From a virus (taxonomy: Duplodnaviria > Caudoviricetes), in the IMG/VR virus record IMGVR_UViG_3300021494_000060, positions 1 through 54,815 of that record: a DNA stretch of 54,815 bases. One strand, 5' to 3'. The notes under the pieces were generated by a model, which did no database searches, was not told the origin of the DNA, and saw nothing but the letters and a program-made list of their open reading frames with translations. The position numbers and the translations under genes are program-made. This document shows positions 4,291 through 49,700 of this stretch, piece by piece. How positions within the stretch are numbered: the first letter of the stretch is position 1; each line of letters opens with the position of its first letter.

Positions 4291-5769
4291 CTAAAACCCC
4301 TTTTTTAAATTTATTTCCGCCAATGCAAGCTGACGTCCTATATACATGGCATGGTTTAAATCAGACACAGCCATATCTCTATAAATCTTATGCTGGATTG
4401 ATTCAGCCTTTCTGCCGCGATATTCATGTATTAAAAGACCGTCTTCAGTGCAGTGCCGTGCAATAATCTCATTCTTTTGCTTATCTACAGTAAAATTAAA
4501 GATCCCGTTAGGATCAGTTTTAATCGATGTTTTTCTATTCTTTACCAATAAAGCTGCTCTTGCAATGGTGCTTTCATCTAAGTCTATGCTTATGGAATTG
4601 CTTATAACGGTTATTGCTCCTGATTCCATACCTGTTTTATCTGCCACAAAATCCAGGATAGCCTTTAATCCGTAAAAGTTATATATCCAGGCATCGATAG
4701 CATTATGAGTACGGTAATTAGCAGTTAATGTCAATTTCTTTTCATAATATCGAAAAAAGAGAGACACTAAACATGGTGTGCTTTTCTCACCCCCCATATC
4801 ATTTCCGGTATCCCAAAGCGCTATAAAACATTTGCGGTCTTCGTTATCTTTTAGGAGTCTTTCAATAGCTGTTGTCAAACCATCTATGCCAAAATATGAC
4901 CTGACCCGATGCCCGTATGTATAAGAAACATCCGCAGGTTTTCCACCAGACAGGATATCTTTTTGATACAATTTTATTTTATCTTCGTTGAACCAGTATT
5001 TTAAAAGCCTTTGATCCGGATCTTTAACAGGTTGCTCTACTATGACTCTAACATTCTGTAATTCCTTCCGTCTGCCTTTTGCAAGACGCACGGTTCTGCC
5101 GAAGCGGTAAAGTATAAAAACCAGTTCTTCCCATGCTTGAACTACGTCTTTTTTTGTGATGGTAAAGGACGCTGGACTGCATGGTAAAGTGCTGATGCTG
5201 ACTTCAGGTAAAGGAACTTCTTTACGGCAGCTTAAAGAACGATTAATACTGGATACTCCTGAAAAATATTTCTTGGCAGTTTCAAGATTTTGATTGTCTG
5301 ATAATTCACCAAGATATGTAATTTCAGGTTTAGGTTTAAAATCTTCAGGCTTGACCAGCGAATCAAGTATACGAGTTCTGCCTATAATACGAACTGCCGG
5401 TATTGTTTGATTATTAAAATGATATGGCGAACTTTCCTTAACCTGTTCAACACCCTTGGTAAAAAAAGACACTAAATCCTCTAATGAACCGTAACGATTT
5501 CGCCCACAACAGACTAAATGAGTAATTTGCGGATTATAAAGCAGGTTTCTAATAAGATAAGGAAATCCATTGCCGCGCAGATTGCCAATAACAGCTATTT
5601 TAGAAAGATCAACACCAACTTCTGATAACCGCTTAACAACCCACTCTACACCTGACCAAAGAGTAACAACACCGATAAAACCTTCAGGATTTATTATTTT
5701 TAGTTTGTCTTTAAAATATAAAGGTTTAAATATGTACATGGTATGTTTCATAATTATATCCTGATTCAT
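4291..5769 (-). CDS. Thymidylate synthase-like protein with N-terminal MtrA-like and C-terminal DUF4346-like domains
   Basis: SYTYGHR, PCL catalytic Cys, R-T-H-N; N-terminal VTLWS...GNL...NPQI; C-terminal DPNG...HAMYIGRQL. Confidence 0.75.
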   Translation of the reverse strand: MNQDIIMKHTMYIFKPLYFKDKLKIINPEGFIGVVTLWSGVEWVVKRLSEVGVDLSKIAVIGNLRGNGFPYLIRNLLYNPQITHLVCCGRNRYGSLEDLVSFFTKGVEQVKESSPYHFNNQTIPAVRIIGRTRILDSLVKPEDFKPKPEITYLGELSDNQNLETAKKYFSGVSSINRSLSCRKEVPLPEVSISTLPCSPASFTITKKDVVQAWEELVFILYRFGRTVRLAKGRRKELQNVRVIVEQPVKDPDQRLLKYWFNEDKIKLYQKDILSGGKPADVSYTYGHRVRSYFGIDGLTTAIERLLKDNEDRKCFIALWDTGNDMGGEKSTPCLVSLFFRYYEKKLTLTANYRTHNAIDAWIYNFYGLKAILDFVADKTGMESGAITVISNSISIDLDESTIARAALLVKNRKTSIKTDPNGIFNFTVDKQKNEIIARHCTEDGLLIHEYRGRKAESIQHKIYRDMAVSDLNHAMYIGRQLALAEINLKKGF

Positions 5770-6525: not shown

Positions 6526-7578
6526 CTATATTTTTTCGATCTCATTACCCCAACTTGCCCAATCTTTTCTTAAGTTTCGTGCAAAAAGCTCAATTTTACG
6601 TTGTTCTGGATACATGCTTTCTATAATATCGTAAATTTTCGATGGTTTTTTACTGTGTTTGTCTTTATCGGCGAAGAAAACGCTTTCAGGCAGATCCATT
6701 GTCATTGGAAGAAAACTCCCTTTAATTCCAATAAGAATAATTTCATGTTTACTACGGACATAAAACCCTGTGCCGATATAGGACTTTACCCATACCATTG
6801 ATGTTTTAAATTTAAACCCCCAAGCTTCTATTACGGAAATAGCCTCTTTAAGCATCGACGTTGTTGCCCATAGAAAAAGAACAGCATTGTCAAGTGTTAT
6901 TTCTTTTACCGGTAATGCTTGAATTTCTTCTATAGTCATTGTCGGATAATGATCATCTGCTACACCCCTCATTGAAGTGGAGTTTTGAGCATACTGCCAT
7001 GGTGGATCTGCCAACAAAACATTGTATTTGCCCTCTAATTTGCCAGCCGGTATTTTTTTTAATTCCTGTTTTCTTTCAACCCTTTTAATTTCCTTATAAA
7101 TTGCATTTATAGAGCTTTTACCAGTGTTTATCCGCTCTATCTGTTTTTTGTCTGCTTTTTTTACAATAACTTTCGCTTTTTGATAAGTAGTATGCCCGCC
7201 AAATCCCGCTTGCTTTGCTGCAATATCTCTTGTTTTGATATTTTTTAGATTCTTACATTTTCGTTTTTTTAACATATCTTCAACAGCTTTTCCAATAGCA
7301 ACTCTTTCTTCAATATTAAACTGTTTCCGAACTTCATTTTCTGCCAATTCGCCTTCCAAAAGGCTGCTAACATCAACAATTCTTCCCTCAATGCTTTCAT
7401 AACCAAGCAGCTTGCAAGCCTCCATTCTCCGCTGTCCAAAAACCAGTACATTGTTTTGGTCAATTCCTATAGGCTGAAGCAAGCCTTGTTTCTTAATACT
7501 ATCGGCAAGTTTTTGCAAATCTCCCATATCCTTGCGATATCTCGTGCCAATCTTTATATCTTTAATTTTTATTTGCAT
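6526..7578 (-). CDS. ParB-like domain fused to MT-A70 family N6-adenine methyltransferase
   Basis: LADSIKKQGLLQPI...G.RR (ParB/Srx); ADPPW, LFLWAT, HSKKP, IELFAR, WGNE (MT-A70). RBS GGAG before ATG 7578. Confidence 0.9.
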   Translation of the reverse strand: MQIKIKDIKIGTRYRKDMGDLQKLADSIKKQGLLQPIGIDQNNVLVFGQRRMEACKLLGYESIEGRIVDVSSLLEGELAENEVRKQFNIEERVAIGKAVEDMLKKRKCKNLKNIKTRDIAAKQAGFGGHTTYQKAKVIVKKADKKQIERINTGKSSINAIYKEIKRVERKQELKKIPAGKLEGKYNVLLADPPWQYAQNSTSMRGVADDHYPTMTIEEIQALPVKEITLDNAVLFLWATTSMLKEAISVIEAWGFKFKTSMVWVKSYIGTGFYVRSKHEIILIGIKGSFLPMTMDLPESVFFADKDKHSKKPSKIYDIIESMYPEQRKIELFARNLRKDWASWGNEIEKI

Positions 7579-7697
7579 GTTATTTTTTTCTCCATAGGGA
7601 TACCACACTATAACCACCTTATAGCCAATATTAGAGACTTTTTTGATTTAGATATGCTAACCCCTATATATTTAAATTTTAGCGCCTAAAATTAACG

Positions 7698-7869: not shown

Positions 7870-8643
7870 TTATCTTTCTATTAACTGCTTAAATTGTTCA
7901 TTCCGAACTATTCTATCATCACGAACATCAAAGCCAAGTTTTTTTATTTTTTTCTCGAGTTCTTCGGAGTCCAACACTTCAACGTTATCATTTTCAAGAT
8001 AATATTGAAGATAGTAACCATACACAACGTCCAGATCCAAATCAGTCATTAAGCTTTGGCTCTGCCTGTCTGCTTTTTTTATAATATTGATAATCATTTG
8101 CACTCCAAACAGTTCCGATTTGGTGAATACCGATTCTACTTCATAGCCTCTATCGCGGATATTTTCTCTTCCGCCTTCCTCACGATCAACCAGGACAAGT
8201 ACTTTTACTATATATAAGCCGGATTCTTCAGCTTTATTAATAGCCTGTATGGTTGAACCGCCGGTTGTTATTACATCATCGATTATTACAACACTGTCGC
8301 CAGAATGAATATCCCCTTCAATCCATTTCATTAATCCATGTTTTTTTGGTTCTTTGCGGATTACAAAAGAAATAAGATCAGATTCCTTTTGCCCTGCTAT
8401 CATTGCTGTTGCCTGTGCGATAGGATCAGCGCCCAGTGTTAGTCCACCAATACCTTTAACACTCAAATCCGCAATCATATCATAGATAACATTGCCGGTA
8501 TAAACCATGCCTTTAGAATACAAGGTGGTCATTTTGCAATCTATATAAAACTGGCTCTTCCGCCCAGAGACTAAAGTAAATACCGGCTTATTTGAATATT
8601 TAAAGGACTTTTTGATTAAAAGAGCTCTTAACTTATCTTTCAT
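7870..8643 (-). CDS. pyrE: Orotate phosphoribosyltransferase with a 75-aa C-terminal extension
   Basis: FTLVSGRKSQFYIDCK, GGLTLGADPIA, RKEPKKHG, PRPP loop VVIIDDVITTGGS, VDREEGG. Confidence 0.9.
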   Translation of the reverse strand: MKDKLRALLIKKSFKYSNKPVFTLVSGRKSQFYIDCKMTTLYSKGMVYTGNVIYDMIADLSVKGIGGLTLGADPIAQATAMIAGQKESDLISFVIRKEPKKHGLMKWIEGDIHSGDSVVIIDDVITTGGSTIQAINKAEESGLYIVKVLVLVDREEGGRENIRDRGYEVESVFTKSELFGVQMIINIIKKADRQSQSLMTDLDLDVVYGYYLQYYLENDNVEVLDSEELEKKIKKLGFDVRDDRIVRNEQFKQLIER

Positions 8644-8860
8644 AATAAGCCCTGTTTGTTTCGTTACAAAACTGTATCTGTTTTGCAATTTCAAAAAGTT
8701 TTGTGCTTTTCTCCATAAATCCCATGCCTGAAAAGTTCTTCAAACGTTCATACTGCTTTTCATAAATAGTTTTCGCCCTGTCAATTTTAAGCATTTGTTC
8801 TATATCAGCGTTTTTACCGCAAACAAGAGCCTCTTCCGTGTTTTTAAAAATTTCGCGCAT
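8633..8860 (-). CDS. Hypothetical protein
   Basis: ORF in operon with GGAG RBS. Confidence 0.5.
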   Translation of the reverse strand: MREIFKNTEEALVCGKNADIEQMLKIDRAKTIYEKQYERLKNFSGMGFMEKSTKLFEIAKQIQFCNETNRAYYER

Positions 8861-9456: not shown

Positions 9457-10248
9457 TTAGAAATTTTCACTCTGACTTTTCAGCCTATTTTTGCCAGCTC
9501 TTTTATTAAATTCTTTCAATAAGTCCAATCTCTTAAATTGAATATGCAGAGTACCCTTCTTATACCATTTAAAGTTAAAATATTTTGAACTGCATTGCCA
9601 TTTTTTATCCTGAATGGCCTGTTTAATAATTGTCAGTGCATTACCAGGATATTTAACCACTTCTTTTCCGTCTAATAAATGAAATACAGTATCCAATGTT
9701 TGTATTTTTTCTCCTGCATATGCGCTTATATATGTCGTATATGTATTTTCAGCAATTTTTACTGTAATAATACTGCCGTTTATTATTACTTTTTCTCCGG
9801 TCTCAAATTTTTTATTAGTTTTAAATTTGTCCCGGTATGGATGCAGCCAACGGTAAGCTTCATCCATAAGTTCATCAAAAATACCGTTTAATTCTGCATA
9901 GACATTGTTACAAAAATCTGTTACACTCTGCTCAGTAATTTCAGGAGTTTTGCCGTTATCTATCTCTTTCCATAACTTGTCAAACCTTCTGCTTGTCATA
10001 AATTTTGGGAGTTCAAACATTGTTATAATTTGTTTCCAGCAATTCTTTTTTATTTCTTTTTTTATTTTATCAAGATTCCATTGGTTAAACCCAAACGGGA
10101 AAAAAGACGTAGTATCACCATAAGCACTTTTAAGTGTTTTTTTAGATTCTTCAATTTTTTCAAAGGCTCGCTCCATATCGTCAATTGCCTTTTTATACGT
10201 ATTTGCTAAACGTGTCGCTGTAGGACGCTGTATTAGTTCATTAACCAT
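9457..10248 (-). CDS. DUF4942-like protein
   Basis: C-terminal YFNFKWYKKGTLHIQFKRLDLLKEFN motif. Confidence 0.7.
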   Translation of the reverse strand: MVNELIQRPTATRLANTYKKAIDDMERAFEKIEESKKTLKSAYGDTTSFFPFGFNQWNLDKIKKEIKKNCWKQIITMFELPKFMTSRRFDKLWKEIDNGKTPEITEQSVTDFCNNVYAELNGIFDELMDEAYRWLHPYRDKFKTNKKFETGEKVIINGSIITVKIAENTYTTYISAYAGEKIQTLDTVFHLLDGKEVVKYPGNALTIIKQAIQDKKWQCSSKYFNFKWYKKGTLHIQFKRLDLLKEFNKRAGKNRLKSQSENF

Positions 10249-11315: not shown

Positions 11316-12558
11316 GTGACTACTCCGTCAGCTAAAGCAGACGGCTTCTATTCCAAAGAAAAGCTCTGTAGCCCCAGAGCTAAAATATTTAACGCCGCAT
11401 TATGATCTCTTTGAAGAGAAAAACCACAGCAAGGACAATGATACATACGATCAGACAATTTGAGCTTATGCCTGTTGCCACAATTGGAGCATATTTGACT
11501 TGTATAGGCAGGATTAACTTGAATGCAACGAGAACCGGCACACTCTGCCTTGTATCTCAAGCAATCAAGAAACATTCTCCATGCTGCGTCACCAATGCTT
11601 TTATTAATGCAACGAAAGTTATCTTTTTTCATGTCGTTGATAGACAAGTTTTCAACGACAATGGTGTTAAACCTGTTCACAAGTTTACGAGACTTTTGGT
11701 GAACAAAATTATGACGTTTCCAGTTAATTCTTTCGTATATACGAGCAACTATTTTACGGACTTTTGCTCTGGCTTTAGACGCTTTTTTCTGCACAGAAAG
11801 TTTACGTTGAGCTTTGGCAAGGGCTTTTTCTTCATGCTTGAAAAAGCGAGGGTTTTCAATCTGTTCCCCATTAGAAAGTGTGGCAAAAGATTCAAGCCCC
11901 ATATCAATACCGATAGATGGATTAATAGGCTGTTCAACAGGTTTATGTGCAATATCGCAGGCAAAGGTTACAAACCATTTTCCAGTAGGTGTTCGCCGGA
12001 CAGTGCAGGTTTTGATCTTACCTTCAATAGACCGGTGAAGTTTGATCTTGACACAACCAATCTTGGAAAGCCTGACAACATTTTTAAGAAGCCTGAAACC
12101 GGATTGAGGATAGGTAAAGGAATCATACCTTCCTTTACCTTTAAATCTTGGATATCCAGGCTTTTGACCAGCTTTTACACGTCTGAAAAAAGCTCTAAAT
12201 GCAAGGTCTATTCTGGTAGAAACATCCTGAAGTGTTTGACTGAAGATATTAGCCAAAAAGGGGTGTTCTATTTTGAGGGTTTTCAAAGTATTGCTTTGAT
12301 CATAGCGAGAAAGACTTTTCTTTTCCGTTTCCCACGCATTTTTGCGTTGCTCAAGAAAATGATTATACAACCAGCGACAGCCGTCAAGTGTTTGCTCAAG
12401 GACTGTGGCCTGCTTATGTGTTGGAAAAATTCTATAGCGAAAAGTTTTTCTCATGGTTTATACATATATCATAAAGTGTATAATAATGTCAAGAGAAATT
12501 TTGCAAAAAGGAACGGGCTTTCATCTGCCAACTAAAGTAGACAGTTTTCCCGCCTGTA
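11316..12558 (-). mobile_element. IS200/IS605-family tnpB-only (IS1341-like) element, about 1243 bp
   Basis: Subterminal hairpins at both ends; right end GAAGCCGTCTGCTTTAGCTGACGGAGTAGTCAC; TTAAT directly 5' of the left end; no tnpA. Boundaries are ambiguous by up to 3 nt. Confidence 0.85.
11348..12454 (-). CDS. tnpB: RNA-guided endonuclease TnpB
   Basis: HTH N-terminus, RuvC residues GIDMG / VVENL / RDHNAA all intact, Zn ribbon CSNCG...CPCCG. Confidence 0.95.
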   Translation of the reverse strand: MRKTFRYRIFPTHKQATVLEQTLDGCRWLYNHFLEQRKNAWETEKKSLSRYDQSNTLKTLKIEHPFLANIFSQTLQDVSTRIDLAFRAFFRRVKAGQKPGYPRFKGKGRYDSFTYPQSGFRLLKNVVRLSKIGCVKIKLHRSIEGKIKTCTVRRTPTGKWFVTFACDIAHKPVEQPINPSIGIDMGLESFATLSNGEQIENPRFFKHEEKALAKAQRKLSVQKKASKARAKVRKIVARIYERINWKRHNFVHQKSRKLVNRFNTIVVENLSINDMKKDNFRCINKSIGDAAWRMFLDCLRYKAECAGSRCIQVNPAYTSQICSNCGNRHKLKLSDRMYHCPCCGFSLQRDHNAALNILALGLQSFSLE

Positions 12559-19690: not shown

Positions 19691-19965
19691 TATGCAACCT
19701 GTCCATTAAATATCTGTCCATTAAACACCTGAAATTGTTTATAAAATTCTTCAATAAGCGATCTTTTGCTCTTTACATCCAGATCGATAACAAGATCAAG
19801 CACGCATTCTTCGCATAAGTTGATAACCAAACCGCCCACCCTTACAGCAACTACACTCTCCCGCCATTTGCAGGCATCGCATACCCTGAACTGCTCTGCC
19901 TCCTTAACTTCTATTACCGTCATTTTTGCCATCTTTGCCATCCCCATTTCCGTCAAAAGCCTCAA
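19690..19965 (-). CDS. Small Zn-finger protein
   Basis: CDAC...LCEEC; start codon uncertain. Confidence 0.55.
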   Translation of the reverse strand: MRLLTEMGMAKMAKMTVIEVKEAEQFRVCDACKWRESVVAVRVGGLVINLCEECVLDLVIDLDVKSKRSLIEEFYKQFQVFNGQIFNGQVA

Positions 19966-20164
19966 AGATTTTTTTCCAATCTGCCTTTGCCGGTTTTTTC
20001 AGGAAAATCTCAAACAATTTTCCTCTTAATTCAGCGTGCATATTCGTACGCCCGAGTATTTCCCCTTCGTCATAACCATCATCATAACCGGCGTCATAAC
20101 CTGCGTCATAACCTGCATCATAGCCATTATCATAGCCATCTGTTCCGTCTATTGCATATTTCAC
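19904..20164 (-). CDS. Hypothetical protein with GYDx repeats
   Basis: 12-bp tandem repeat encoding GYD(N/A/D/E) six times; start overlaps the stop of the Csx16-like gene. Confidence 0.6.
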   Translation of the reverse strand: MKYAIDGTDGYDNGYDAGYDAGYDAGYDDGYDEGEILGRTNMHAELRGKLFEIFLKKPAKADWKKIFEAFDGNGDGKDGKNDGNRS

Positions 20165-20451
20165 CTTTCACACCTCCTTACAATATAAGTTACTGGTTTT
20201 CCTGCGTATTTCCTAACATCTCCAGCCGTCAGTTCCTTGCCACGCAACTCAGCAGGCAATCGAAGCGGAACTTCAGTAAAACTCGCCGCCAGACAGGACA
20301 GGCTATGAGGCAAAACACCGATAACATGCCTGTTCGTAACGACTTCAGAGGTTGCGTGTGCGATCACCTCTACATTATCGCCTACAATTCCTTCTTCTTT
20401 CAGGTATTCCACTAACCCGTTATGCCGGGTTACTATTAATTTTTCCCCCAT
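20161..20451 (-). CDS. csx16: Csx16 (Cas_VVA1548)-like protein, putative cyclic oligoadenylate ring nuclease
   Basis: IVTRH.G.VEYL...VIAH...VIGVLP...L.LPAELRGKELT...Y.V follows the Csx16 motif order over its full 96 aa; AAGGAG RBS. Confidence 0.75.
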   Translation of the reverse strand: MGEKLIVTRHNGLVEYLKEEGIVGDNVEVIAHATSEVVTNRHVIGVLPHSLSCLAASFTEVPLRLPAELRGKELTAGDVRKYAGKPVTYIVRRCER

Positions 20452-20470
20452 TTTTTATCTCCTTTCTTTC

Positions 20471-20698
20471 CTATTCTATATTTTCGGCATGTAATAAAGT
20501 AAAGGAACGGTGTTTTATTTTTACGAATACTGCTCCTTTATCGTTATCGCTGATTTTTATTTTTTTTCTCTCACCTGGTTTTAATTGTATTGTTTCTGGG
20601 AAATTTGTTACCGTAACAGAAAACGTAGAAACGTTTTCTGTATTGTTTTGTATCCAAAACTCTGTTTTTTTGTCTGTTGTTATTGTTATTATTCTCAC
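20471..20698 (-). CDS. Small early hypothetical protein
   Basis: GTG start with AAGGA RBS directly after a repeat element. Confidence 0.6.
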   Translation of the reverse strand: MRIITITTDKKTEFWIQNNTENVSTFSVTVTNFPETIQLKPGERKKIKISDNDKGAVFVKIKHRSFTLLHAENIE

Positions 20699-20718
20699 TT
20701 TTTATTTCCTTTCTTTCC

Positions 20719-20806
20719 AATAAAAAAGGCGCACCTCACCTTTATAGTGAAATACGCCTTTGAGTTGACCGGTTTTATGACCAGTCGGTTCGGTGGCTAT
20801 TATTTT
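20719..20806 (-). ncRNA. Duplicated two-hairpin intergenic element, copy 2
   Basis: Near-identical to 21275-21358; stem changes are compensatory. Confidence 0.6.
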
Positions 20807-21018
20807 ACGTAAACAAAATGGCGGTGTTCCAATATTACACAGAACGCCGTCTTTTTCTGCATTTCTATTTTTCTAATCTCATACGGCTCTAACCGTATGA
20901 GATCGTTTTCTTTCTTTCGAGCCGCTATAGTTGCGACTCGAATAGTGGCGTAGCTTTCTGAGTCATTGCAGGCCCAAAAAAAAATTTTCTTTTCCCCAAA
21001 CATTATTGTTTTCTCCAT
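20800..21018 (-). CDS. Small early hypothetical protein
   Basis: AAGGAG RBS; 72 aa. Confidence 0.65.
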   Translation of the reverse strand: MEKTIMFGEKKIFFWACNDSESYATIRVATIAARKKENDLIRLEPYEIRKIEMQKKTAFCVILEHRHFVYVK

Positions 21019-21032
21019 ATTTCTCTCCTTTC

Positions 21033-21260
21033 TTAGACGCCTAAAAGACGCCCTATCTCTTCTAATGTATCAATGTCCGTGCACTTGTTGAACATATCAC
21101 GGATCTGCCTCTTTCTTTTCGCCACGCTGACGCCGTGGCGCACCTCTACTTTTGATATCCCGACGCCACGTCTAAAAAGGGCTAAGGCATCTGAGTCGAG
21201 GTGGTCGGAGCGACAGTGCGCCCCGTCGTCGAACTCAACGAATATGTAGCTGTTTTTCAT
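21033..21260 (-). CDS. Small early hypothetical protein
   Basis: AAGGA RBS; 75 aa. Confidence 0.65.
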   Translation of the reverse strand: MKNSYIFVEFDDGAHCRSDHLDSDALALFRRGVGISKVEVRHGVSVAKRKRQIRDMFNKCTDIDTLEEIGRLLGV

Positions 21261-21274
21261 TTTTTCTTCCTTCT

Positions 21275-21358
21275 AATAAAAAGGCGCACCTCACCTTAGT
21301 GAGATACGCCTTTGAGTTGACCGTCTTTAGTGACGGCCGGTTCAGTGGCTATTATTTT
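21275..21358 (-). ncRNA. Duplicated two-hairpin intergenic element, copy 1
   Basis: GGCCGTC-ACTAAA-GACGGTC then AAAGGCGTATCTCAC-TAAG-GTGAGGTGCGCCTTT plus a U-tract. Confidence 0.6.
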
Positions 21359-21600: not shown

Positions 21601-21841
21601 TTTCTTACCTCCTTTTTTTATGCAGTGCAACATGACATGCCCTGCACAGAATTTGTAAGTTTTCCGGTGTCGTCTTTCCACCTTCTGACACCGGAATTAT
21701 ATGGTGTGGCTCAGCACTGATCATCGTCAGTGCGACGCCACACCGCGAGCAGGCATAACCCGCCCCGCATTTTTTTCTCCTTTTTTTGCTCCGGCTTAGG
21801 GCTGTTTTTACCCTCCGGTGACCGGAGGGGTGAATCGGCCA

Positions 21842-22069: not shown

Positions 22070-22160
22070 TTTTTCCCTCTCCTTTCTTTTGTCGAACTGC
22101 CGAGTTTTCCTCGACAGTTCTTTTTATTGTTATTTTTTTTCGCTTTTTAGTTATCTATAT

Positions 22161-22177
22161 TGCACACCCTGTGCCAA
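22161..22177 (-). promoter_or_regulatory. Sigma54-type (-24/-12) promoter for the leftward early arm
   Basis: Minus strand TTGGCAC-AGGGT-GTGCA fits TGGCAC-N5-TTGC(A/T) with correct GG-to-GC spacing, about 90 bp before the first early gene. Confidence 0.6.
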
Positions 22178-22453
22178 ACCCAACTTTCCCGCCAAACATT
22201 ATAACCATACCATATATTGATTTTTCCTGCTTTCCACCACAAGAAAAAAAACATTTAAAGCCAGTCATTTCGGCGTTTTTGAAGCCAAACATACTTAAAC
22301 TATTGTATTTATTATAAAAAACACCATTTAAAAAAATTAGACAAAAATACAAAACAAGACATTTCCGCTGGTTTTGTCCTTGCCTACCGGCCGGCAGGTA
22401 TCTAAACTTTTGTGTTCTTGAACTTTTTTTATTTTTTTTTCTTGACTTTTTCA

Positions 22454-22521
22454 GAATATTAACGAATATTAAAGAATAATGAAGAATATTAACGAATATT
22501 AACGAATAATAGCGAATAATA
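22454..22521. repeat. Seven degenerate 10-bp tandem repeats (GAATATTAAC) upstream of terS
   Basis: GAATATTAAC GAATATTAAA GAATAATGAA GAATATTAAC GAATATTAAC GAATAATAGC GAATAATA. Confidence 0.85.
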
Positions 22522-22541
22522 TCAGGTATATAAAAAAAATA

Positions 22542-23009
22542 ATGAAAGAGAATAAATTAGATAAATTGCGGAAAAAGCGGGAAAAAGACGAAAAATATAG
22601 AAAAATGATAGCTTTAAAACGTCAGAAGATATTAGATTATTTCACCAATCCTGATAATCCGCCGATAACACGCTGTGAGCTTTCTACGAAAATTCTTGGA
22701 TATACCCATGAGAATACCATATACCGCTTTTTTTCGCCTGAAGATATTGATGCTATCGAATGGGAAGCGCTCGATATAAAGCGCAGAAGATATGCGAAAG
22801 AATTGATGCAGGTTGATGCAGCCGTGCTGAAAAGAGCCGCCAAAGGCGACCCTAAAGCGGCGAAATTAGCGTACCAGAGATTTGAAAATTGGGGCGAAAA
22901 AAAGTATAACGAACATACAGGAAAGGACGGAAAACCGCTGTTTCCTGAGCTTACAGACGATCTAATGGAAAGAATTAGAACGCTTGCCGGCATTGATTCT
23001 GATAAATAA
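22542..23009 (+). CDS. terS: Terminase small subunit
   Basis: HTH-like region, KRAAKGDPKAAKLAYQ and EHTGKDGKPL motifs; directly upstream of terL. Confidence 0.75.
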   Translation: MKENKLDKLRKKREKDEKYRKMIALKRQKILDYFTNPDNPPITRCELSTKILGYTHENTIYRFFSPEDIDAIEWEALDIKRRRYAKELMQVDAAVLKRAAKGDPKAAKLAYQRFENWGEKKYNEHTGKDGKPLFPELTDDLMERIRTLAGIDSDK

Positions 23010-23040: not shown

Positions 23041-24561
23041 ATGAGAGGCCGTATGAGACACCGCATTAGAGCTCATAAGGAGTATTTTGAGCTGCTTTCT
23101 GAAGCCAAACGATATAATTGCTATAATACAGCGAAAAGGGAACTCTGTTTGCATGATCTCTTTTTTTTGATGGTGTATATGCTCCGGCGGCCGGATGTAG
23201 ACAGAGATTGGTTATACGATAGATGCAGGGAAGTTCAAGCCGCACCTGATTTTCATTTAGATCTCTGGGCTCGGGCGCATTGGAAGTCTTCAATTATTAC
23301 TTTCGGTCTAACTATTCAGGATATTCTGAAAAATCCTGAAATCACTATCGGTCTTTTTTCGTTCACCCGTCCTGCGGCAAAAACATTTCTCCGTCAGATT
23401 AAACTTGAATTTGAAACTAACGAAGATTTAAAAACATTATTTCCCGACATTTTATATCACAATCCGAAAAGAGAATCCCCCAAATGGTCTGAAGATGAAG
23501 GAATCATTGTCCGCCGGCAGGGAAACCCAAAAGAAGCCACGATAGAAGCATCAGGGCTCATAGATGGCATGCCGACAGGCCGGCATTATAATCTTCGTAT
23601 ATATGATGATATCATTACTGAGAAATCGGTAACTACGCCCGAAATGATACGAAAGGTGAATACAGCATGGGAACTGTCGCAGAATCTTGGCTCTGAAAAT
23701 GGAATTATGCGGGTGGTCGGCACTCGGTATCATTTCGCTGATACCTATCACCTTATAAAAAAGCGTAAAACTCTGACTCCACGTGAGCATCCTGCTACAG
23801 AAGACGGCACAGCGAAAGGAAAACCAGTCCTGCTCGATCCTGAATCCTTAGCGAAAAAACGCAGAGATCAGGGATTATACACCTTCTCCTGCCAGATGCT
23901 GCTTAATCCTGTGGCTGATGAAGCACAGGAACTAAAACCTGAATGGATACGATATTGGCCTGCTGAACATTGGGAAAACCTGAACCTTTATCTTTTTTGC
24001 GATCCTGCCGGCTCGAAAAAGAAGGGCAGTGATTACACGGTCTTCATCATTATCGGACTGGGTGAAGATCATAACTATTATATAGTTGACTGGGAACGGG
24101 ACAGACTGAATCTCGTAGAACGTGCTGATGTTCTTTTTTCATTGCACCGGAAATATTTGCCGATAGGTGTATATTACGAAAAATATGGAAAAGATTCTGA
24201 TATAGAGCATTACCAGGATAGAATGAACAGGGAAAATTACAGGTTTGATATCAGGGAAGTCGGCGGTACAATATCGAAAGAAGACCGGATACGAAAGCTT
24301 ATACCGCTTTTTGAGCAGGGAAGATTTTTTATTCCTGCTGTTAGTATGAAAAAAAACTCGGGAAGCAGGCTTGAGAATCTGACAGAAATATTTGTAGAAG
24401 AAGAATACAAACTGTTCCCCTTTTCAATACATGACGATATGTTGGATTGTGCCGCAAGAATTCTTGATACGAAAACATCTGCTGCGTTTCCGCAGTCCGT
24501 TGTAAATCCAAATGACATAATTCCAGGCTCGTCCAGCACTGCCGTATCAGGATGGAAGTAA
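23041..24561 (+). CDS. terL: Terminase large subunit
   Basis: ARAHWKSS Walker A variant, TGRHY...IYDD, GTRYH, CDPA...SDYT, HDDMLD nuclease motifs. Confidence 0.92.
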   Translation: MRGRMRHRIRAHKEYFELLSEAKRYNCYNTAKRELCLHDLFFLMVYMLRRPDVDRDWLYDRCREVQAAPDFHLDLWARAHWKSSIITFGLTIQDILKNPEITIGLFSFTRPAAKTFLRQIKLEFETNEDLKTLFPDILYHNPKRESPKWSEDEGIIVRRQGNPKEATIEASGLIDGMPTGRHYNLRIYDDIITEKSVTTPEMIRKVNTAWELSQNLGSENGIMRVVGTRYHFADTYHLIKKRKTLTPREHPATEDGTAKGKPVLLDPESLAKKRRDQGLYTFSCQMLLNPVADEAQELKPEWIRYWPAEHWENLNLYLFCDPAGSKKKGSDYTVFIIIGLGEDHNYYIVDWERDRLNLVERADVLFSLHRKYLPIGVYYEKYGKDSDIEHYQDRMNRENYRFDIREVGGTISKEDRIRKLIPLFEQGRFFIPAVSMKKNSGSRLENLTEIFVEEEYKLFPFSIHDDMLDCAARILDTKTSAAFPQSVVNPNDIIPGSSSTAVSGWK

Positions 24562-24570
24562 ATATTATAT

Positions 24571-26520
24571 ATGACTACGAATGATAAAGAAAAAAAAATA
24601 TTGGAATCAATGCGAAAGCGCCTCGATGCTTCAATTTCTGCTGAAGCTGACGAAAGAGAAAAAGGAACGAACGATCTCAAGTTTATCAACGGCGATCAAT
24701 GGGAACAGTCTGTTATTCAGCAGAGAGGAAAAGGCAGGCTATGCTTGACAATCAATAAACTTCCGACCTTTCTTGATCAAATTGACGGCGATATGCGTCT
24801 CAATACTCCTGGTATTTCAGTGAATGGCGTAGATGATCACGATGACCCAGATACCGCTGATGTCATAGAAGGTCTGGTTCGTTATATCCAGCGTAATTCC
24901 GGCGCTGACAGGATTCATTCATACGCCGGTATTCATGCTGCTGCCGGTGGACGTGGAGCATGGCGGATTCTGACCGATTATATTGACGACGCCGGATTTG
25001 AACAGGAAATCAGGATCAAAAGAATAATCAATCCATATTCTGTGTATTTCGACCCCGCTGCTGAAGACGATAACAAACAGGACGGACAGTATTTTTTCAT
25101 TGTTACTGATATGTCGCGGGATGAATATCGAAATCAGTACAATTTTGAGCCGGTCGATTATGAAACTGACGGCAAGGAACTTGCCAACTGGCAGACTGAA
25201 ACTACTGTAAGAGTTGCTGAATATTTCTGGAAAGAAAAAACAGGTACGAAAACACTATACCAGCTTGAAAACGGCGATGTAGTTGAAGAAAAACCGAAAA
25301 AATACCAGAAAAAAAGAGCAGTGCCCATATACGAAATCAGATGGGCAAAGGTCGATGGAAAACGGATATTAGACGAAGGCAAGATCCCGGGCACAATGTT
25401 CCCAATTGTTTTATGCTGGGGGAAGCAGCTTTGTGTTGACGGAAAAATTGAATCCAGAGGCATTGCACGGCATGCTAAAGACGCTGTGAAAATGTATAAC
25501 TATTTCCGGTCTAATGATGCCGAAAGTGCAGCGTTGCAGCCGAAACAGCCATATCTGATGCCCGATAGCTGTCTCGGAGCGTACAAAGAAGTCTGGGATA
25601 AGGCCAATGATGAAAACTATCCATATCTGCCTTATAAAGTTGATGCAAACTTTCCCAACCTGCGTCCTATACGTGAAAGACCGCCGGTTTCTTCAGCAGG
25701 CAATCAAGCACAAATAGCAATTGCCGATAGCGAAATGAAAGATACTATTGGTATCCAAGAGGCAGGTTTAGGGCAAAGAAGCAATGAAACATCAGGGGTT
25801 GCCATTCAAAAAAGAAAGCAGGAATCGGATACAGGCATGTTCGCTTTTATCGACAATCTTGCGGCTGCCATAGAAACCGAAGCCAAGATTATATTATCAA
25901 TGATTCCTGAAATTTACGATTACAAAAAAAAGCTCCGTATTCTCGGAAAAGATATGAAGGAAAAAATAGTATCTGTTAATGATGGAGCAGGCGTTGATCT
26001 GACTACGGGGAAATATGATGTATCAATTTCAATAGAAGGCTCATATTCTACACAGAGAGAAGAGTTTCAGAAAAAAATAGAAACGCTTCTTCCGCACCTG
26101 AATCCTGAACAGATTGGAGTAATAGCTCATAAATTATTTGAAATGCAGGACGTGCATGGATTCAATGATATCGCTGAAATCCTGAAAAAATTGCTACCGC
26201 CTGAATTTCAGGATAGCACAGATAATCTTGATGAAGAAAGTGAAATGGCTGTTGAATCTGCTGGGTTATCATCTGAACAATTATTACCTGAACAGCAGGC
26301 CGCACAGGCACAGGCACAGGCACAGGCACAACAGATGCAGATGCAGCAGCAACTAACATTGGAACTTGAACAAATCAAGCTTGAACAGGAAAAAGAAAAA
26401 CTAAAAGGCATTCAACTTGACAATGCCTTAAAAGAAAAAACCAAGAAAGAAGAAGTCAAGGCAATATTGGCAGAAATGGCAGAAGAAGAACGAAACGCTG
26501 TATTAGCGGCGGCAGAATAA
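24571..26520 (+). CDS. P22-like portal protein
   Basis: FINGDQW, LTINKL, NETSGVAIQKR, GKYDV motifs; Q-rich C-terminal barrel. Confidence 0.9.
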   Translation: MTTNDKEKKILESMRKRLDASISAEADEREKGTNDLKFINGDQWEQSVIQQRGKGRLCLTINKLPTFLDQIDGDMRLNTPGISVNGVDDHDDPDTADVIEGLVRYIQRNSGADRIHSYAGIHAAAGGRGAWRILTDYIDDAGFEQEIRIKRIINPYSVYFDPAAEDDNKQDGQYFFIVTDMSRDEYRNQYNFEPVDYETDGKELANWQTETTVRVAEYFWKEKTGTKTLYQLENGDVVEEKPKKYQKKRAVPIYEIRWAKVDGKRILDEGKIPGTMFPIVLCWGKQLCVDGKIESRGIARHAKDAVKMYNYFRSNDAESAALQPKQPYLMPDSCLGAYKEVWDKANDENYPYLPYKVDANFPNLRPIRERPPVSSAGNQAQIAIADSEMKDTIGIQEAGLGQRSNETSGVAIQKRKQESDTGMFAFIDNLAAAIETEAKIILSMIPEIYDYKKKLRILGKDMKEKIVSVNDGAGVDLTTGKYDVSISIEGSYSTQREEFQKKIETLLPHLNPEQIGVIAHKLFEMQDVHGFNDIAEILKKLLPPEFQDSTDNLDEESEMAVESAGLSSEQLLPEQQAAQAQAQAQAQQMQMQQQLTLELEQIKLEQEKEKLKGIQLDNALKEKTKKEEVKAILAEMAEEERNAVLAAAE

Positions 26521-44138: not shown

Positions 44139-44574
44139 AAAAAGATGGACAGCGTATGATTCGTTACAAACGTATCTAACGACTGAATTAAACAGTTTGG
44201 CTAATAACGGTCTTGTTCTTGGTTCAGCCATTGATTTTACGGCATCCGGTACAGACCGGAAGTTATATATAGACATAGAATTATACTTGGCCTCGATAGA
44301 TTTATCGTCGCAAGATAATCCGGCTGCATATATTTGGCTACTTCGCAGAACAGATGGCACTAATTTCGAGGATGGCGGTGCGTCTATTACACCGGCACGA
44401 ATGCCTGATGATATTATTCCATTGCGGGAAGCTAATGCTGCACAGAGAGTATCTGGTAAAGTTATAACAGTGCCTGATCAAGGTAAAATATTAATAAAGA
44501 ACGAATCCGGTGTTACATGGGCGTCAAGCGGCAATACATTGAAATATAACATCTATTCAATACAGGATGCTTAA
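44128..44574 (+). CDS. Putative virion structural protein
   Basis: LNSLANN...DGTNFEDG...SGNTLKY beta protein. Confidence 0.6.
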   Translation: MATEKRWTAYDSLQTYLTTELNSLANNGLVLGSAIDFTASGTDRKLYIDIELYLASIDLSSQDNPAAYIWLLRRTDGTNFEDGGASITPARMPDDIIPLREANAAQRVSGKVITVPDQGKILIKNESGVTWASSGNTLKYNIYSIQDA

Positions 44575-46511
44575 TGTTCCGATATTGTAGATTACAAAAT
44601 CCAACCAAAAAGCCTCCTTATGGAAGCATAATTGACACACGGCATCCATTAGCGCAAGGGTTAATAGGCTGCTGGGCATTCAATGAACACGGCGGAAACA
44701 TGGCTTTTGACTGCGCCGGCCAGAATCATTTCACGCTGTATAATACAGACTGGAATGTTGACGGCGTATTGTTTAATTCGGCGTCTGACTATGGCAGGAA
44801 AACCAATCCTGCCAATATAGGCGGGTTTCCTAATGGGTTTAGTATAACAGTTATATTAACGCCTGCGGCATTGGATACACGCTGTAGTTTTGTCCAGCAT
44901 TATGACACAACGGATAACCAGCGGGCTTTCTTCGTAGAATATGATTTTGAAGATAATAGAATCCGTGTGTTTTTATCAGGGGATGGTGTTAATTATTATG
45001 TTTCACAGCATGAAAACCCTTTAGAAGTCAATAAAGAAACTATTTTTACTGTTACATGGACGCCTGGTAATTTTCCAATTCTTTATGCTGATGGTATCTT
45101 AAAAAATACGTTACATACAGACGGAACGCCAACATCCACCATATTTGATTCTACAGCTCCGTTAGATATAGGCAGGAGTACGTATAGTACAAGCAGAGCT
45201 TTTCCTGGCACAATCCATCTTGTTTTAATACATGATTTAACATTGCCGGAGATATTAACCAGAAGCCTGCATAACTATAAATATTCTTTATTTGAAGACC
45301 CTTTTATATCTTATTTTTGCGATTTTGGTGCTGCTGCTCCAAGCAATATTATTAAAGTTTTAAATGATACGTCCAGCAGTTCTGATGTTGTCAAGCATGT
45401 ACTTGATATAGCAAAAATTCTTAGCGATACATCAGGCAGTTCAGATGCAGTAAATCATGCGCTTAATATAATAAATATATTGAGCGATACGGCTGATAGT
45501 TCTGATGCTGTAAGTCATGTTCTTGATATAACAGGGGTTCTTAATGATTCGGCCGCCGGTTCAGATGTTGTCAATCATGTTCTTGATATAATAAAAGTCT
45601 TTTCCGATTCAACCGGAAGTACAGAAACCTTTAACCATGTTCTTGATATTGTTAAGATTCTTAATAACACTGCTGACAGTTCTGATGCTGTTAATCATGT
45701 ACTTGGAATAATAAGAACCTTTCTTGATACCACTGATAGTTCCGATACTGTCAACCATGCTCTTGGCCTGATAAAAATATTTATTGATACCGCTGACAGT
45801 TCTGATACGCTCAATCATGTTCTTGATATAATAAAAGCTTTCAGCGATGCTGCTATCAGTTCTGACACTTTCAATCACGTTTTTGATATTGTTAAGATTC
45901 TTGATGAAACTGCCGCTGGTTCTGATACTGTCAACCATGTTCTCGGGATAGTTAAAACAATTGTTGATACCGCTGATAGTTCCGATGTTGTTAATCATGT
46001 TCTCGGGCTAATAAAAGTCTTTTCCGGTTCAGCCGGCAGTTCCGATACCATCAATCATGTTATTGATATTATCAGAGTTTTAAATAACACTGCTATCAGT
46101 TCCGGTACTGTCAACCATGTTCTTGATATAATAAAAATTCTCAATGATGCTGCTGCTGGTTCTGACACTCTCAATCACGTGCTTGGCATTGTCAGGGTTC
46201 TTAATAATTCAGCCGCTGGTTCAGACGCTGTCAATCATGTTCTCGGGCTAACAAGAACCATTATCAACTCTGCTGTCAGTTCTGATACTGAAAATCATGT
46301 TATTTCAATAACAGGTGATATTCTAACTGCATTGGCTGAAATTAAATCAGTGGTTGATGCTAATAATGTTCTTTTAACAGAACTCTGGAGATTACAGGGG
46401 CTTGATATATCCAACCCAATGACGGTTACTCCGACTTCAAGAACAGTTGGCAGTATATCACAGACAATATCTGGGGATGGTAAAACTATCACTACTGTAA
46501 CAAGAAACTAA
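44574..46511 (+). CDS. LamG/concanavalin-like domain fibre protein with 16 x 20-aa repeats
   Basis: HPLAQGLIGCW.FNE.GG, LYADG, PLDIGR (LamG-like); 60-bp periodic repeat at 45348-46307. Confidence 0.8.
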   Translation: MFRYCRLQNPTKKPPYGSIIDTRHPLAQGLIGCWAFNEHGGNMAFDCAGQNHFTLYNTDWNVDGVLFNSASDYGRKTNPANIGGFPNGFSITVILTPAALDTRCSFVQHYDTTDNQRAFFVEYDFEDNRIRVFLSGDGVNYYVSQHENPLEVNKETIFTVTWTPGNFPILYADGILKNTLHTDGTPTSTIFDSTAPLDIGRSTYSTSRAFPGTIHLVLIHDLTLPEILTRSLHNYKYSLFEDPFISYFCDFGAAAPSNIIKVLNDTSSSSDVVKHVLDIAKILSDTSGSSDAVNHALNIINILSDTADSSDAVSHVLDITGVLNDSAAGSDVVNHVLDIIKVFSDSTGSTETFNHVLDIVKILNNTADSSDAVNHVLGIIRTFLDTTDSSDTVNHALGLIKIFIDTADSSDTLNHVLDIIKAFSDAAISSDTFNHVFDIVKILDETAAGSDTVNHVLGIVKTIVDTADSSDVVNHVLGLIKVFSGSAGSSDTINHVIDIIRVLNNTAISSGTVNHVLDIIKILNDAAAGSDTLNHVLGIVRVLNNSAAGSDAVNHVLGLTRTIINSAVSSDTENHVISITGDILTALAEIKSVVDANNVLLTELWRLQGLDISNPMTVTPTSRTVGSISQTISGDGKTITTVTRN

Positions 46512-46757: not shown

Positions 46758-49700
46758 ATGGCTTCTCTCGCAAAATGTTTAGATCTTGCTAAGATAAAAA
46801 CTCCCGAATCAAAATTAATCAAAGCCAAAGCAAAATCTTTGATGTCTGAAGGCTATACTGAAAAAGAAGCTAACGAAAAGGTTATTAAAGATACCATTGA
46901 AGATTTAAACAGGGAATGGCAGGATATTGTTAATCAGGTAGAAAAAATAACAGGCAAGAAGTTTAAAACAAAAGAGGTTATAGGGGCTTACCCCTATAAA
47001 GGAGAAAAATATGCTGCCGATCATGTTAGAGAACAAAAACGGGAAAAAGCAAAGGTTGAACCTCCTGAGAAACGCATTGGAGAAAAAGAATCCAAAACTG
47101 TTCCAACAGTTAAAGAAAAATTTGCAACTGAAGAAATTCCTGAACGAAAGAGAGAACCAGTTGATGTCAGTGTTCAGGAAAGAAGAAGAAAAACTCCTGT
47201 CAAACCTGTCAAAAAAGCCGATAAGCAATCCGCTCCGGTGGGAACAAAAGTACCGAGCGGAACTGCTGAGAATATGGGAGTTGACCCTGCAAACGTTTCT
47301 GGAGTTCTAAAAAGAGACCATGTCATAGCTCATGGAGACCTTGAAAGAAAAAGATCATGGCTTGGAGTTGCTGAAGATAATCTTGCTGCGATTGAAACTG
47401 CAAAGAAAATAATAAGTGAAAACAGACCTGCAACATTAAAAGAACAGTCGATTCTTGCAAAATACGTTGGCTGGGGAGCTTCAGAACTTGCAAACAATAT
47501 GTTCCCTGGTGTCTCATTTCGTGGCAAGCTATCTCCCCAATGGGCAGAACAAAAATGGAAGCCTCTTGTTGAACAACTGCAAAATATCCTGACTCCTGAA
47601 GAAATAATACAGGCTGCAAGAAGTACACAGTATGCTCACTATACAAGCGAACAGGTCATTCGTTCAATTTATAATGTTCTTGAAAAGTTTGGTGTAAAAC
47701 ATGCTAAATTTCTTGAACCAGGCATGGGTATTGGTAATTTTATAGGATTAATGCCTGCTTCTTTCAGAAAACGAAGTTCATTTACGGGCATTGAGAGAGA
47801 TTCTGTAACAGCTGATATTGCGAACCTTTTATATCCTAACCAGAACATTTTAAAGTCTGATTTTATCAAACAGGCACTTCCGAAAGATTTTTTTGATATT
47901 GCAATTGGAAATCCTCCTTTTTCTCAAACAAAAATTCTTGAAGACCCTGAATATAAAAAATACCGTTTATCTACACATAATTATTTTTTTGCAAAGGCTC
48001 TTGACCGTGTCAGACCAGGCGGTCTGCTTGTTTTTGTTACAAGCCGTTATACAATGGATTCAAAAAATGAAGCGGGCAGAAAATATATATCCGAACGGGC
48101 AAACCTGATAGGCGCAATCAGGCTTCCACAAACGGCTTTTAAAAAAAATGCCGGCACTGAAGTTGTTACAGATATTCTTTTTCTGCAAAGAAAGGATGAA
48201 GATATCCCAGCAGGTCAAGCATGGGCAAACATTAAAGAAGTAAAAGTTGATAAAGACCTTGCATATAATAGAATTAACACAGCAGAAATTAATGAATATT
48301 ATATCAAGCATCCTGAGATGGTTCTTGGCAGGCATTCATGCCGCGGCGGCATACACGCAAAAGACGGCTACACTGTAGAACAAGGCACTGAAAGTATAGA
48401 TAAGTTATTTGAAAGAGCAGTAAAAAAATTACCTGAAAACATTTATAAACCGCAAATTGCAAAAAACAAGAAAAAAACGGAAGTAACCGAAATTCTTGAA
48501 AGAGATTTTAACCCGAAAATTACACACGAGGGGGGAATATATCTTTCAGAAAAAAACCAGTTAATGATTACGGAAAAAGGTATTGGAAAACCGATAACCG
48601 GATTATCCGCAAAAAACACCGAGTTTCTCAAAGATTATATTCTGTTAAGAGATGCCCTGAAATTATCACATAAAGCACAGTTGGAAAATAAAGACTGGGA
48701 AAAAGCTTTAGAAGATTTAAATAAACAGTATGATTCATTTGTTAAAAAACATGGCAGAATTAAAAGTTATAAATTATTTACAAGGAAACAAAAACAACCG
48801 GACGGAACAGTAAGAAAATTTACCGAAAAACGGTATAAAAATTTATCGTTATTAAAAAAAGATGTTGAATATACAAGAATACTGACTCTTGAAAAAGAAA
48901 CAGTTGATGGCGAACTGATAAAATCAGAAGTTCTGACACGCAGAACAGTCAATAAACCTGTAACGCCCGAAATAAAAACAGTAGCAGATGCACTTGCTGT
49001 TTCTTTAAGCCAGACAGGAAAACTTGATATAGAACATATTGCTGATCTTGTAAAAGAAAAAGACACAGCTAAAATAATAAAAGATTTAGGAGATTTGATC
49101 TATAAAGTTCCGGGAACTAATAACTATATTCTTGCAGATGAATATCTGTCTGGTAATGTCGTAAGAAAATTAAACGAAGCCATAGAAGCTGCCAGGATAG
49201 ATTCTGAATTTAACAGGAATGTAAAAGCTTTGCAAAAAGTACAGCCTAAACCGTTAGCGCCGAAAGATATTACAGTTACATTAGGCGCAACATGGATTCC
49301 GCTTAAATATTACAACCAGTTTGCAGCAGAAGTTATTGAACTGCCCGGAGTTAAGATATCGTACCGGACAGCAAATAATTCATGGGGAATTGATGGTGAT
49401 TTTACTGCACAAAGTTTAAGAGGAAGACCTGGTTATACATGGAGCACGGAAGATCGTGGAGCAAATGAAATCCTTGATGCTGTTCTTAATAATAAAACTA
49501 TAAAGGTGAAAGGTAAAGACCCTGAAACAAATGCAGTCTTTGTTGATAAAGGAGCTACTGCCGCTGCTCTTGATAAGGCAAGGGAGATGAAAACGCGGTT
49601 CAGAACATGGATATGGGAAGATTCTGACAGGGCAAAAAATTTATTGGATATCTATAATACCAAGATCAATGTTTTAAAAGGCAGGGAGTTTGACGGTTCG

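Follow-up and report, generated by a model that had tools for sequence, protein, structure and literature searches.

A Csx16-family gene in a complete tailed-phage genome as a candidate anti-CRISPR of the ring-nuclease class

To our knowledge, ring nucleases are the sole known enzymatic route by which a virus can shut down type III CRISPR at its signalling arm, and few viral ring-nuclease families have been tested so far. Here we describe a csx16-family gene, encoding a protein of 96 amino acids (aa), in the whole IMG/VR virus record IMGVR_UViG_3300021494_000060, a stretch of 54,815 bases classed as linear and called “the window” throughout. An initial annotation, made from the letters of the window, had already named this gene as a candidate anti-CRISPR. 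After comparing it with the described ring nucleases, we consider it likely, though well short of certain, that its product is a dimeric phage anti-CRISPR of the ring-nuclease class cleaving cyclic tetra-adenylate (cA4).

Viruses and plasmids are reported to encode ring nucleases able to act as anti-CRISPRs (PMC12830947, PMC13148439). For Csx16, the cA4 ring-nuclease activity that the initial annotation had named was shown biochemically with a cellular member, which degraded cA4 fully and cyclic hexa-adenylate (cA6) not, and which stayed cA4-specific even at 10-fold more enzyme (PMC12409355). According to the same report, 68 type III loci in 38,742 genomes contain Csx16, and ring nucleases, cellular Csx16 included, co-occur solely with cA4-dependent effectors. 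Phage Csx16 copies have so far only been counted there, in cultured phages: among 28,114 phage genomes of the Millard database, AcrIII-1 was recorded in 36, Csx20 in 4 and Csx16 in 2, with Hoikkala et al. (2025) reading the phage Csx16 alongside AcrIII-1 (PMC12409355). Among the full-text literature matches listed for Csx16, including those with ring nuclease or anti-CRISPR, we found no published test of a phage Csx16. In parallel, Crn4 was described as a broad-spectrum ring nuclease present in 11 of 28,137 phages and 10 of 59,895 plasmids, and the same source assigns the role of general acid to an essential histidine, H47 in AcrIII-1 and H15 in Crn4, and considers that viral nucleases of cyclic tri-adenylate (cA3) could also hit the cyclic-oligonucleotide-based antiphage signalling system, or CBASS (PMC12830947). 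The related small CARF-like protein Csx15 is described as sponging cA4 well while cleaving it very slowly; its authors saw it in no phage genome and argue that sponging may be a poor strategy for viruses (PMC13148439).

By sequence comparison, the 96-aa protein belongs to the Csx16 homology family as a divergent member of a phage-type sub-clade. The Csx16 (Cas_VVA1548) identity proposed by the initial annotation was borne out by a profile search, in which the protein reached 65.6 bits against Pfam PF09652 (gathering score 25, E 4.8e-18, profile positions 2-90 of 91), a six-frame search with the same profile giving 64.8 bits at csx16. Four PADLOC Csx16 models also matched the protein, with a top score of 62.7 bits. 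The NCBIfam equivalog TIGR02620 gave 28.8 bits, under its cut-off of 46.35, and we have therefore filed the protein under the Pfam homology family and not under the NCBIfam equivalog. In a Pfam scan at E<=10, PF09652 was the sole match, with no match to DUF1874, in agreement with the earlier statement that AcrIII-1 represents a different family. No PHROG family matched the protein, and a sequence search of the PDB returned nothing meaningful, its best match being a secretion chaperone at E 0.42.

The four motifs from which the identity had first been read (VTRH.G, VIAH, VIGVLP and LPAELRGKELT) are all present in the order claimed, as VTRHNG at residues 7-12, VIAH at 29-32, VIGVLP at 43-48 and LPAELRGKELT at 65-75. 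When 31 close homologues, sharing 59-93% identity with the window protein, were aligned, 23 columns were invariant. In a family-wide comparison of the window protein with annotated plasmid Csx16 proteins, including two CRISPR-linked Allochromatium copies, H10, G45, L47, P48, L51, G71 and L74 were invariant and R9, G12, H32, R70 and E73 were kept at 90% or more; among 34 diverse stand-alone members (window protein included), R9, H10, H32, G45, L47, P48, L51, R70, G71 and L74 were invariant. The phage protein therefore shares with cellular Csx16 (PMC12409355) not only the length of about 95 aa and a PF09652 match above the gathering score, but also the core pattern of the family, consisting of [ST]-R-H after strand 1, a histidine (H32) after strand 2, G-x-L-P after strand 3 and an R-G-x-E-L loop, besides a five-stranded alpha/beta fold and a dimeric state, both predicted for the phage protein. 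Unlike cellular Csx16, the phage copy lies below the TIGR02620 cut-off, is 32-34% identical to the CRISPR-linked Allochromatium copies, and carries H49-S50-L-S52-C53 and F58-T59-E60, which are restricted to its own sub-clade, most other members having L-x-L-A there.

These differences bring in the question of the substrate. The modest identity to CRISPR-linked Csx16, the equivalog score and the H-S-L-S replacement peculiar to the clade would all suit a protein that degrades some other signal (for instance cA3, cA6 or a cyclic oligonucleotide of the CBASS type) and counters a defence other than, or besides, cA4-type III CRISPR; Crn4 shows that a broad ring nuclease is possible, and the proposed reach of viral cA3 nucleases into CBASS points the same way (PMC12830947). 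We regard this as quite unlikely, however, because the residues common to the whole family are all retained, and because the Csx16 that was tested is reported as strictly cA4-specific at high enzyme, with cellular Csx16 found only with cA4 effectors (PMC12409355).

The AlphaFold2 (AF2) model of the protein reached a predicted local distance difference test (pLDDT) of 90.7 and a predicted template modelling score (pTM) of 0.76, with strands at residues 4-7, 28-30, 42-45, 57-60 and 87-90 and helices in between, and this five-stranded alpha/beta arrangement fits the published description of Csx16 (PMC12409355). A Foldseek search of the model against the PDB gave no match at E<=0.001, and its likeness to AcrIII-1 falls within the range of unrelated Rossmann-like folds. 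The loops that follow the strands are the usual nucleotide-binding edge of a Rossmann-like sheet. Going by the order of the secondary-structure elements, T8-R9-H10, H32 and L47-P48-H49 are placed in the loops after strands 1, 2 and 3, respectively, and the conserved residues would thus lie at this nucleotide-binding edge. The dimer that the initial annotation had put forward for structure prediction was also recovered at the model level, with a homodimer score of 0.69 against 0.00 for the best control; among proteins of solved structure, the mark used was reached by 20 of 30 pairs and by 1 of 23 single chains. Contact agreement between the runs was at least 86%, with a partner pLDDT of at least 88. 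The protein is accordingly predicted to form a homodimer whose interface comprises residues 49-50, 52-53, 57-58, 60 and 62 and the last strand (87-94), with H49 placed opposite H49 of the partner.

It is near this dimer axis that residues of the sub-clade have changed, and it might be argued that the protein is a sponge, binding cA4 or another cyclic oligoadenylate tightly with slow or no turnover, as reported for Csx15 (PMC13148439); binding and cleavage are not separable by sequence alone. We hold this to be very unlikely, given that the family-invariant R-H and H32 are retained and that AcrIII-1 and Crn4 rely on an essential histidine as their general acid (PMC12830947), while the cellular Csx16 that was tested is reported as a true enzyme (PMC12409355) and the authors of the Csx15 study did not see their protein in any phage genome and argue that sponging may be a poor choice for a virus (PMC13148439).

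The ring-nuclease mechanism that we favour would proceed as follows. After infection, the Csx16 homodimer would bind cA4, the second messenger from Cas10 of the host type III CRISPR system, in a pocket lying across the dimer and made of the loops T8-R9-H10, H32 and L47-P48-H49 together with R70-G71-x-E73-L74. The cA4 ring would then be cut to linear products, and the cA4-activated effectors (Csx1/Csm6-type RNases, Can1/2, Cam1 etc.) would never be switched on. The activity of this copy, its early expression, a cA4-signalling type III system in the host and the identity of the catalytic residues are what we infer in drawing this scheme.

The gene is carried by a phage and not by a CRISPR locus. 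The virus record is a complete tailed-phage genome, with a CheckV completeness of 100%; no terminal repeat was found in it. The Cas10 models TIGR02578 and TIGR02577 gave 0 matches in the window, the same models firing in 6 of 14 and 5 of 14 control genomes, respectively, and a PADLOC scan of 57 window open reading frames (ORFs) gave no CARF effector among the best 25 of 35 families matched. Besides Csx16, these best 25 held Cas12f and “Csx1” models, a methyltransferase, a DinG-type helicase and DrmD. No CRISPR array was found in the window, where the sole repeat of CRISPR-like period is one of 60 nucleotides (nt) at 45305-46300. This repeat was ruled out as an array and is a protein repeat, because its roughly 15 copies are just 63-83% alike and lie as 20-aa units inside a long ORF, that of a tail-region protein. 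The “Csx1” match (E 1.9e-47) was likewise rejected as a phage CARF effector, since it is the TnpB gene and that model also finds a match in 8 of 14 control genomes; the PADLOC models Cas12f, Cas12u and “Csx1 (found elsewhere)” all land on this same gene. The earlier statement that the genome holds no cas operon or array thus stands as far as tested. With no Cas10, array or CARF effector found in a genome that is that of a phage, csx16 is not a CRISPR-associated gene here, again unlike cellular Csx16, and it resembles the viral ring-nuclease anti-CRISPRs in being virus-encoded where no CRISPR system was found.

This phage is far from being the only carrier. A word-indexed protein search returned 284 proteins at E<=0.001, the best 120 of which were 60-94% identical, all with PF09652 and nearly all metagenomic, and an exhaustive profile search of 50%-identity cluster representatives returned 1,559 at E<=0.001, 908 at E<=1e-10 and 41 at E<=1e-30. 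Among the family representatives, tandem duplicates (two matched stretches within some 200 aa) and fusions to other domains, up to 560 aa long, are numerous, and no more than 18 of the top 150 have a length of 115 aa or less. Scanning IMG/VR for the H-S-L-S patterns of the sub-clade gave 27 contigs, and for the wider family 44 contigs, one of them already among the 27, that is, at least 70 distinct viral contigs with Csx16-family members, some of which may be near-duplicates; this number is a lower bound because three peptide patterns only were used. These loci have almost nothing else in common with the window: when its ORFs were searched against them by tblastn, matches were limited to the terminase (4 loci), the portal (2), the small terminase (2) and two single genes. 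The GC content of the loci ranges from 0.30 to 0.57, and the carriers are, on these comparisons, unrelated phages. A census of 239 neighbouring ORFs (at least 80 aa, within 4 kb of the gene, 27 loci) matched T4-, gpA- and Terminase_3-type terminases, portals, a capsid, prohead proteases, lysozymes, DnaB, a primase-polymerase and methylases, with no cas family among the best 25 of 40 and the best 25 of 31 matched families. Cas10/Csm1 was matched in 0 of the 50 viral records examined of the 70, 11 of these 50 being at least 90% complete and 6 having terminal repeats. In 185,579 species genomes, the sub-clade patterns were met in 6 contigs of metagenome-assembled genomes (MAGs) only, one of which (17,379) agrees with an IMG/VR contig in size and hit pattern. 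A tblastn of the protein against 50,697 GenBank phage records gave nothing at E<=0.001, and the two phage Csx16 copies counted by Hoikkala et al., which resemble the present one in being carried by a phage genome, are therefore probably distant from its sub-clade. The sub-clade was seen solely in uncultured viral contigs and MAG contigs. A search for cellular Csx16 by phylum sampling gave no match in the 400 other genomes taken from each of two phyla.

In plasmids, tblastn matched 7 records representing 6 distinct plasmids. The two Allochromatium copies are the CRISPR-linked ones, lying beside csm6 and cas1 in type III-B loci. In contrast, the other 4 of the 6 stand alone, with no cas gene within 9-10 kb, a call made on PLSDB gene tables that are incomplete and, for Allomeiothermus silvanus, on a stretch cut at the record start. 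These stand-alone copies are found in Deinococcus proteolyticus plasmid pDEIPR02 (47% identity, the closest annotated Csx16), in the A. silvanus plasmid (40%, as the N-terminal domain of a 671-aa protein), in an uncultured archaeal plasmid (35%) and in a Paenibacillus polymyxa plasmid (30%), and their neighbours are small hypothetical genes together with SSB, Rad52, ParB and similar genes. On pDEIPR02, which is typed MPF_T, the surrounding stretch (9118-29387) holds small hypothetical genes, three SSB genes, a RES-domain protein, a DUF4326 protein and a lytic transglycosylase, and it looks like the leading or anti-defence region of a conjugative plasmid.

We propose the anti-CRISPR role because of the family membership, the intact core and the constraint across unrelated phages, and because no partner CRISPR or CARF gene was found in the phage, in parallel with AcrIII-1, Crn4b and Csx20 on mobile elements; the family match, the core and the phage genome in which no Cas10 was found thus lend support to the interpretation first advanced from the letters of the window. 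Like this protein, Crn4b and Csx20 are CRISPR-type ring nucleases carried by mobile elements and read as anti-CRISPRs, and a viral SAVED ring nuclease is described in PDB entry 9r8s; unlike it, their folds or families are unrelated or distant, and Crn4 is broad-spectrum where Csx16 is cA4-specific.

The gene might instead have no counter-defence role at all, being either a passenger acquired from the CRISPR locus of a host or a gene that regulates some phage-encoded protein responsive to cyclic oligoadenylate. Its GC content of 0.467, against 0.378 for the phage genome, suggests a horizontal origin, and most of the small genes around it have no assigned function in the PHROG matches. We find this highly improbable, the smallest chance among the explanations considered, because a passenger would decay, while 23 columns are invariant in 31 homologues and the contigs span a wide range of GC; in addition, the gene recurs in the many viral contigs listed above with unrelated neighbours, and the window offers no CARF effector or Cas10 match for it to regulate, the “Csx1” match being TnpB.

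In the window, family scans of the ORFs outline two blocks of genes. The rightward block begins at 22542 and includes, besides the terminase and portal of Table 1, head, scaffold, tail and endolysin families, whereas the leftward block encodes a Sak4-like annealing protein, an ERCC4 nuclease, a DinG-type helicase, a ParB_N/MT-A70 methyltransferase, a thymidylate-synthase-like enzyme and a TnpB/IS605 element. The csx16 gene is about the seventh ORF of the leftward unit, some 1.7-2 kb from the divergent intergenic region (22100-22540). The initial annotation had placed it among “small early genes”: it does lie among small ORFs, with an ATG start and the ribosome-binding site that had been claimed, and “early” derives from position, early expression being plausible because the gene is near the head of the leftward operon. 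As to the host, the nearest cultured relatives of the portal are 32-34% identical and belong to phages of various Proteobacteria, near-identical proteins carry the conflicting source names Paceibacterota, Neomarinimicrobiota and Desulfobacula, and no tRNA genes were found in the phage genome.

Immediately downstream of csx16, an 86-aa ORF has a GTG start overlapping the csx16 stop by 4 nt and an AGGAGG site inside the csx16 3' end, and because of this overlap and this site it is probably translationally coupled to csx16. On the upstream side, the 75-aa and 72-aa ORFs are paralogues of each other, with 32% identity across 62 residues (pairwise E 4e-7), and neither had a family match. An intergenic element of about 105 nt is present in two copies in the window, which agree at 84% over a 62-nt core and each of which folds as a pair of hairpins (z -5.2 and -6.6). 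The stem of the first hairpin does not have the same sequence in both copies, yet its pairing is kept; the second hairpin is GC-rich with a run of T, terminator-like, and directly followed by the ribosome-binding site of the next small gene. No further copy was found elsewhere in the window or in 43 other loci examined, and no Rfam family matched. The element may mark cassette boundaries, a weak sign of which is one metagenome contig joining 20743 to 21298, between the element copies (short side 23).

Related variants are represented in four DNA runs that carry the label hydrothermal vent metagenome; the pieces are short contigs of at least 85% likeness, and csx16 is covered in all four runs. 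Their joints delete, replace or re-order small cassettes (20771 to 21033, and the one from 20743 to 21298 just mentioned), and another, from 20179 to 20699, spans csx16 and the preceding ORF, with a short side of 39 and intervening letters that are not known. These joints hint at a variable cassette region around csx16.

Table 1. Positions of csx16, its surroundings and other features in the window
Feature	Position	Strand or block	Basis or remark
csx16-family gene, 96 aa, ATG start	20161..20451	minus	ORF call and PF09652 match
Ribosome-binding site AGGAGA, 6 nt upstream of csx16 ATG	20458-20463	minus	read from sequence
86-aa ORF downstream of csx16, GYD-type repeats	19904..20164	minus	weak PHROG matches, function unknown
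Small ORF, 75 aa, next upstream of csx16	20471-20698	minus	ORF list
Small ORF, 72 aa, upstream of csx16	20800-21018	minus	ORF list
Repeated two-hairpin intergenic element, copy 1	20699-20806	minus	one gene (20471-20698) upstream of csx16
Repeated two-hairpin intergenic element, copy 2	21254-21358	minus	repeat comparison, folding
Frame with HNH-type core (CxxC ... HHIIP ... NLQILCxxCH), 78 codons stop to stop	21604-21840	minus	
About 6.5 tandem copies of a 10-nt unit, GAATATTAAC	22453-22518		divergent intergenic region between gene blocks
Large terminase	23041-24561	rightward block	family match
P22-type portal	24571-26520	rightward block	E 1.6e-147
645-aa tail-region protein holding the 20-aa repeat	44574-46511	plus	ORF
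Giant ORF, at least 2,686 aa, DarB-like antirestriction (phrog_10089, E 0)	46758-54815, open at record end	plus	PHROG and domains
Open frame at record start, 850 aa	2-2554	plus	ORF, no Pfam match
Thymidylate-synthase-like enzyme fused to pterin-binding DUF4346 domain	4291-5769	minus	
ParB_N/MT-A70 methyltransferase	6526-7617	minus	
Phosphoribosyltransferase-like protein	7870-8694	minus	Pfam just under cut-off, PHROG match
DUF4942 protein	9457-10248	minus	
TnpB/IS605 OrfB gene: OrfB_IS605, Cas12f1-like TNB and HTH domains	11348-12454	minus	in replication module

The phage appears to carry other means of counter-defence. The giant DarB-like ORF, with LPD23, Eco57I-type methylase and SNF2/ResIII helicase domains, is probably a polyvalent, injected counter-defence protein. 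The record is cut inside this ORF, and the 850-aa frame at the record start may be its continuation. In addition, the thymidylate-synthase-like enzyme, the ParB_N/MT-A70 methyltransferase, the phosphoribosyltransferase-like protein and the DUF4942 protein of Table 1 give a hint that the phage also uses DNA modification against restriction. The HNH frame is probably the remnant of a homing endonuclease among the early cassettes, and it is taken as decayed because its sole canonical start gives 39 aa without the first CxxC. In the divergent intergenic region, the tandem GAATATTAAC units may serve as iterons or as operator sites.

In summary, viral ring nucleases as a kind, the cA4 activity of Csx16 and the counting of phage Csx16 in print are already known (PMC12409355), and the present finding opens no new kind of biology, the viral tactic itself being a known one. 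What is new here is the conserved phage-type sub-clade, the spread of the family over the viral contigs without a Cas10 match in the records examined, and the stand-alone plasmid copies. More tentatively, and in our estimation unlikely, the H-x-L-S sub-clade would be a virus-adapted Csx16 in which an extra invariant pair, His49 and Ser50, at the dimer axis provides faster or broader cleavage of cyclic oligoadenylates than in the cellular enzyme, as His47 does in AcrIII-1. On this reading, Csx16 as a whole, with its spread over viral contigs and the plasmids in which it stands alone, may belong to mobile elements no less than to CRISPR loci, and would then constitute an abundant, uncounted AcrIII family of uncultured phages, possibly of viral origin like Crn2. 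This phage, in any case, is a clean complete-genome example of a phage-borne csx16, and, if the ring-nuclease anti-CRISPR role proposed for it is true, its protein would represent a sixth or seventh anti-type III family and a small tool, of only 96 aa, to switch off cA4 signalling.
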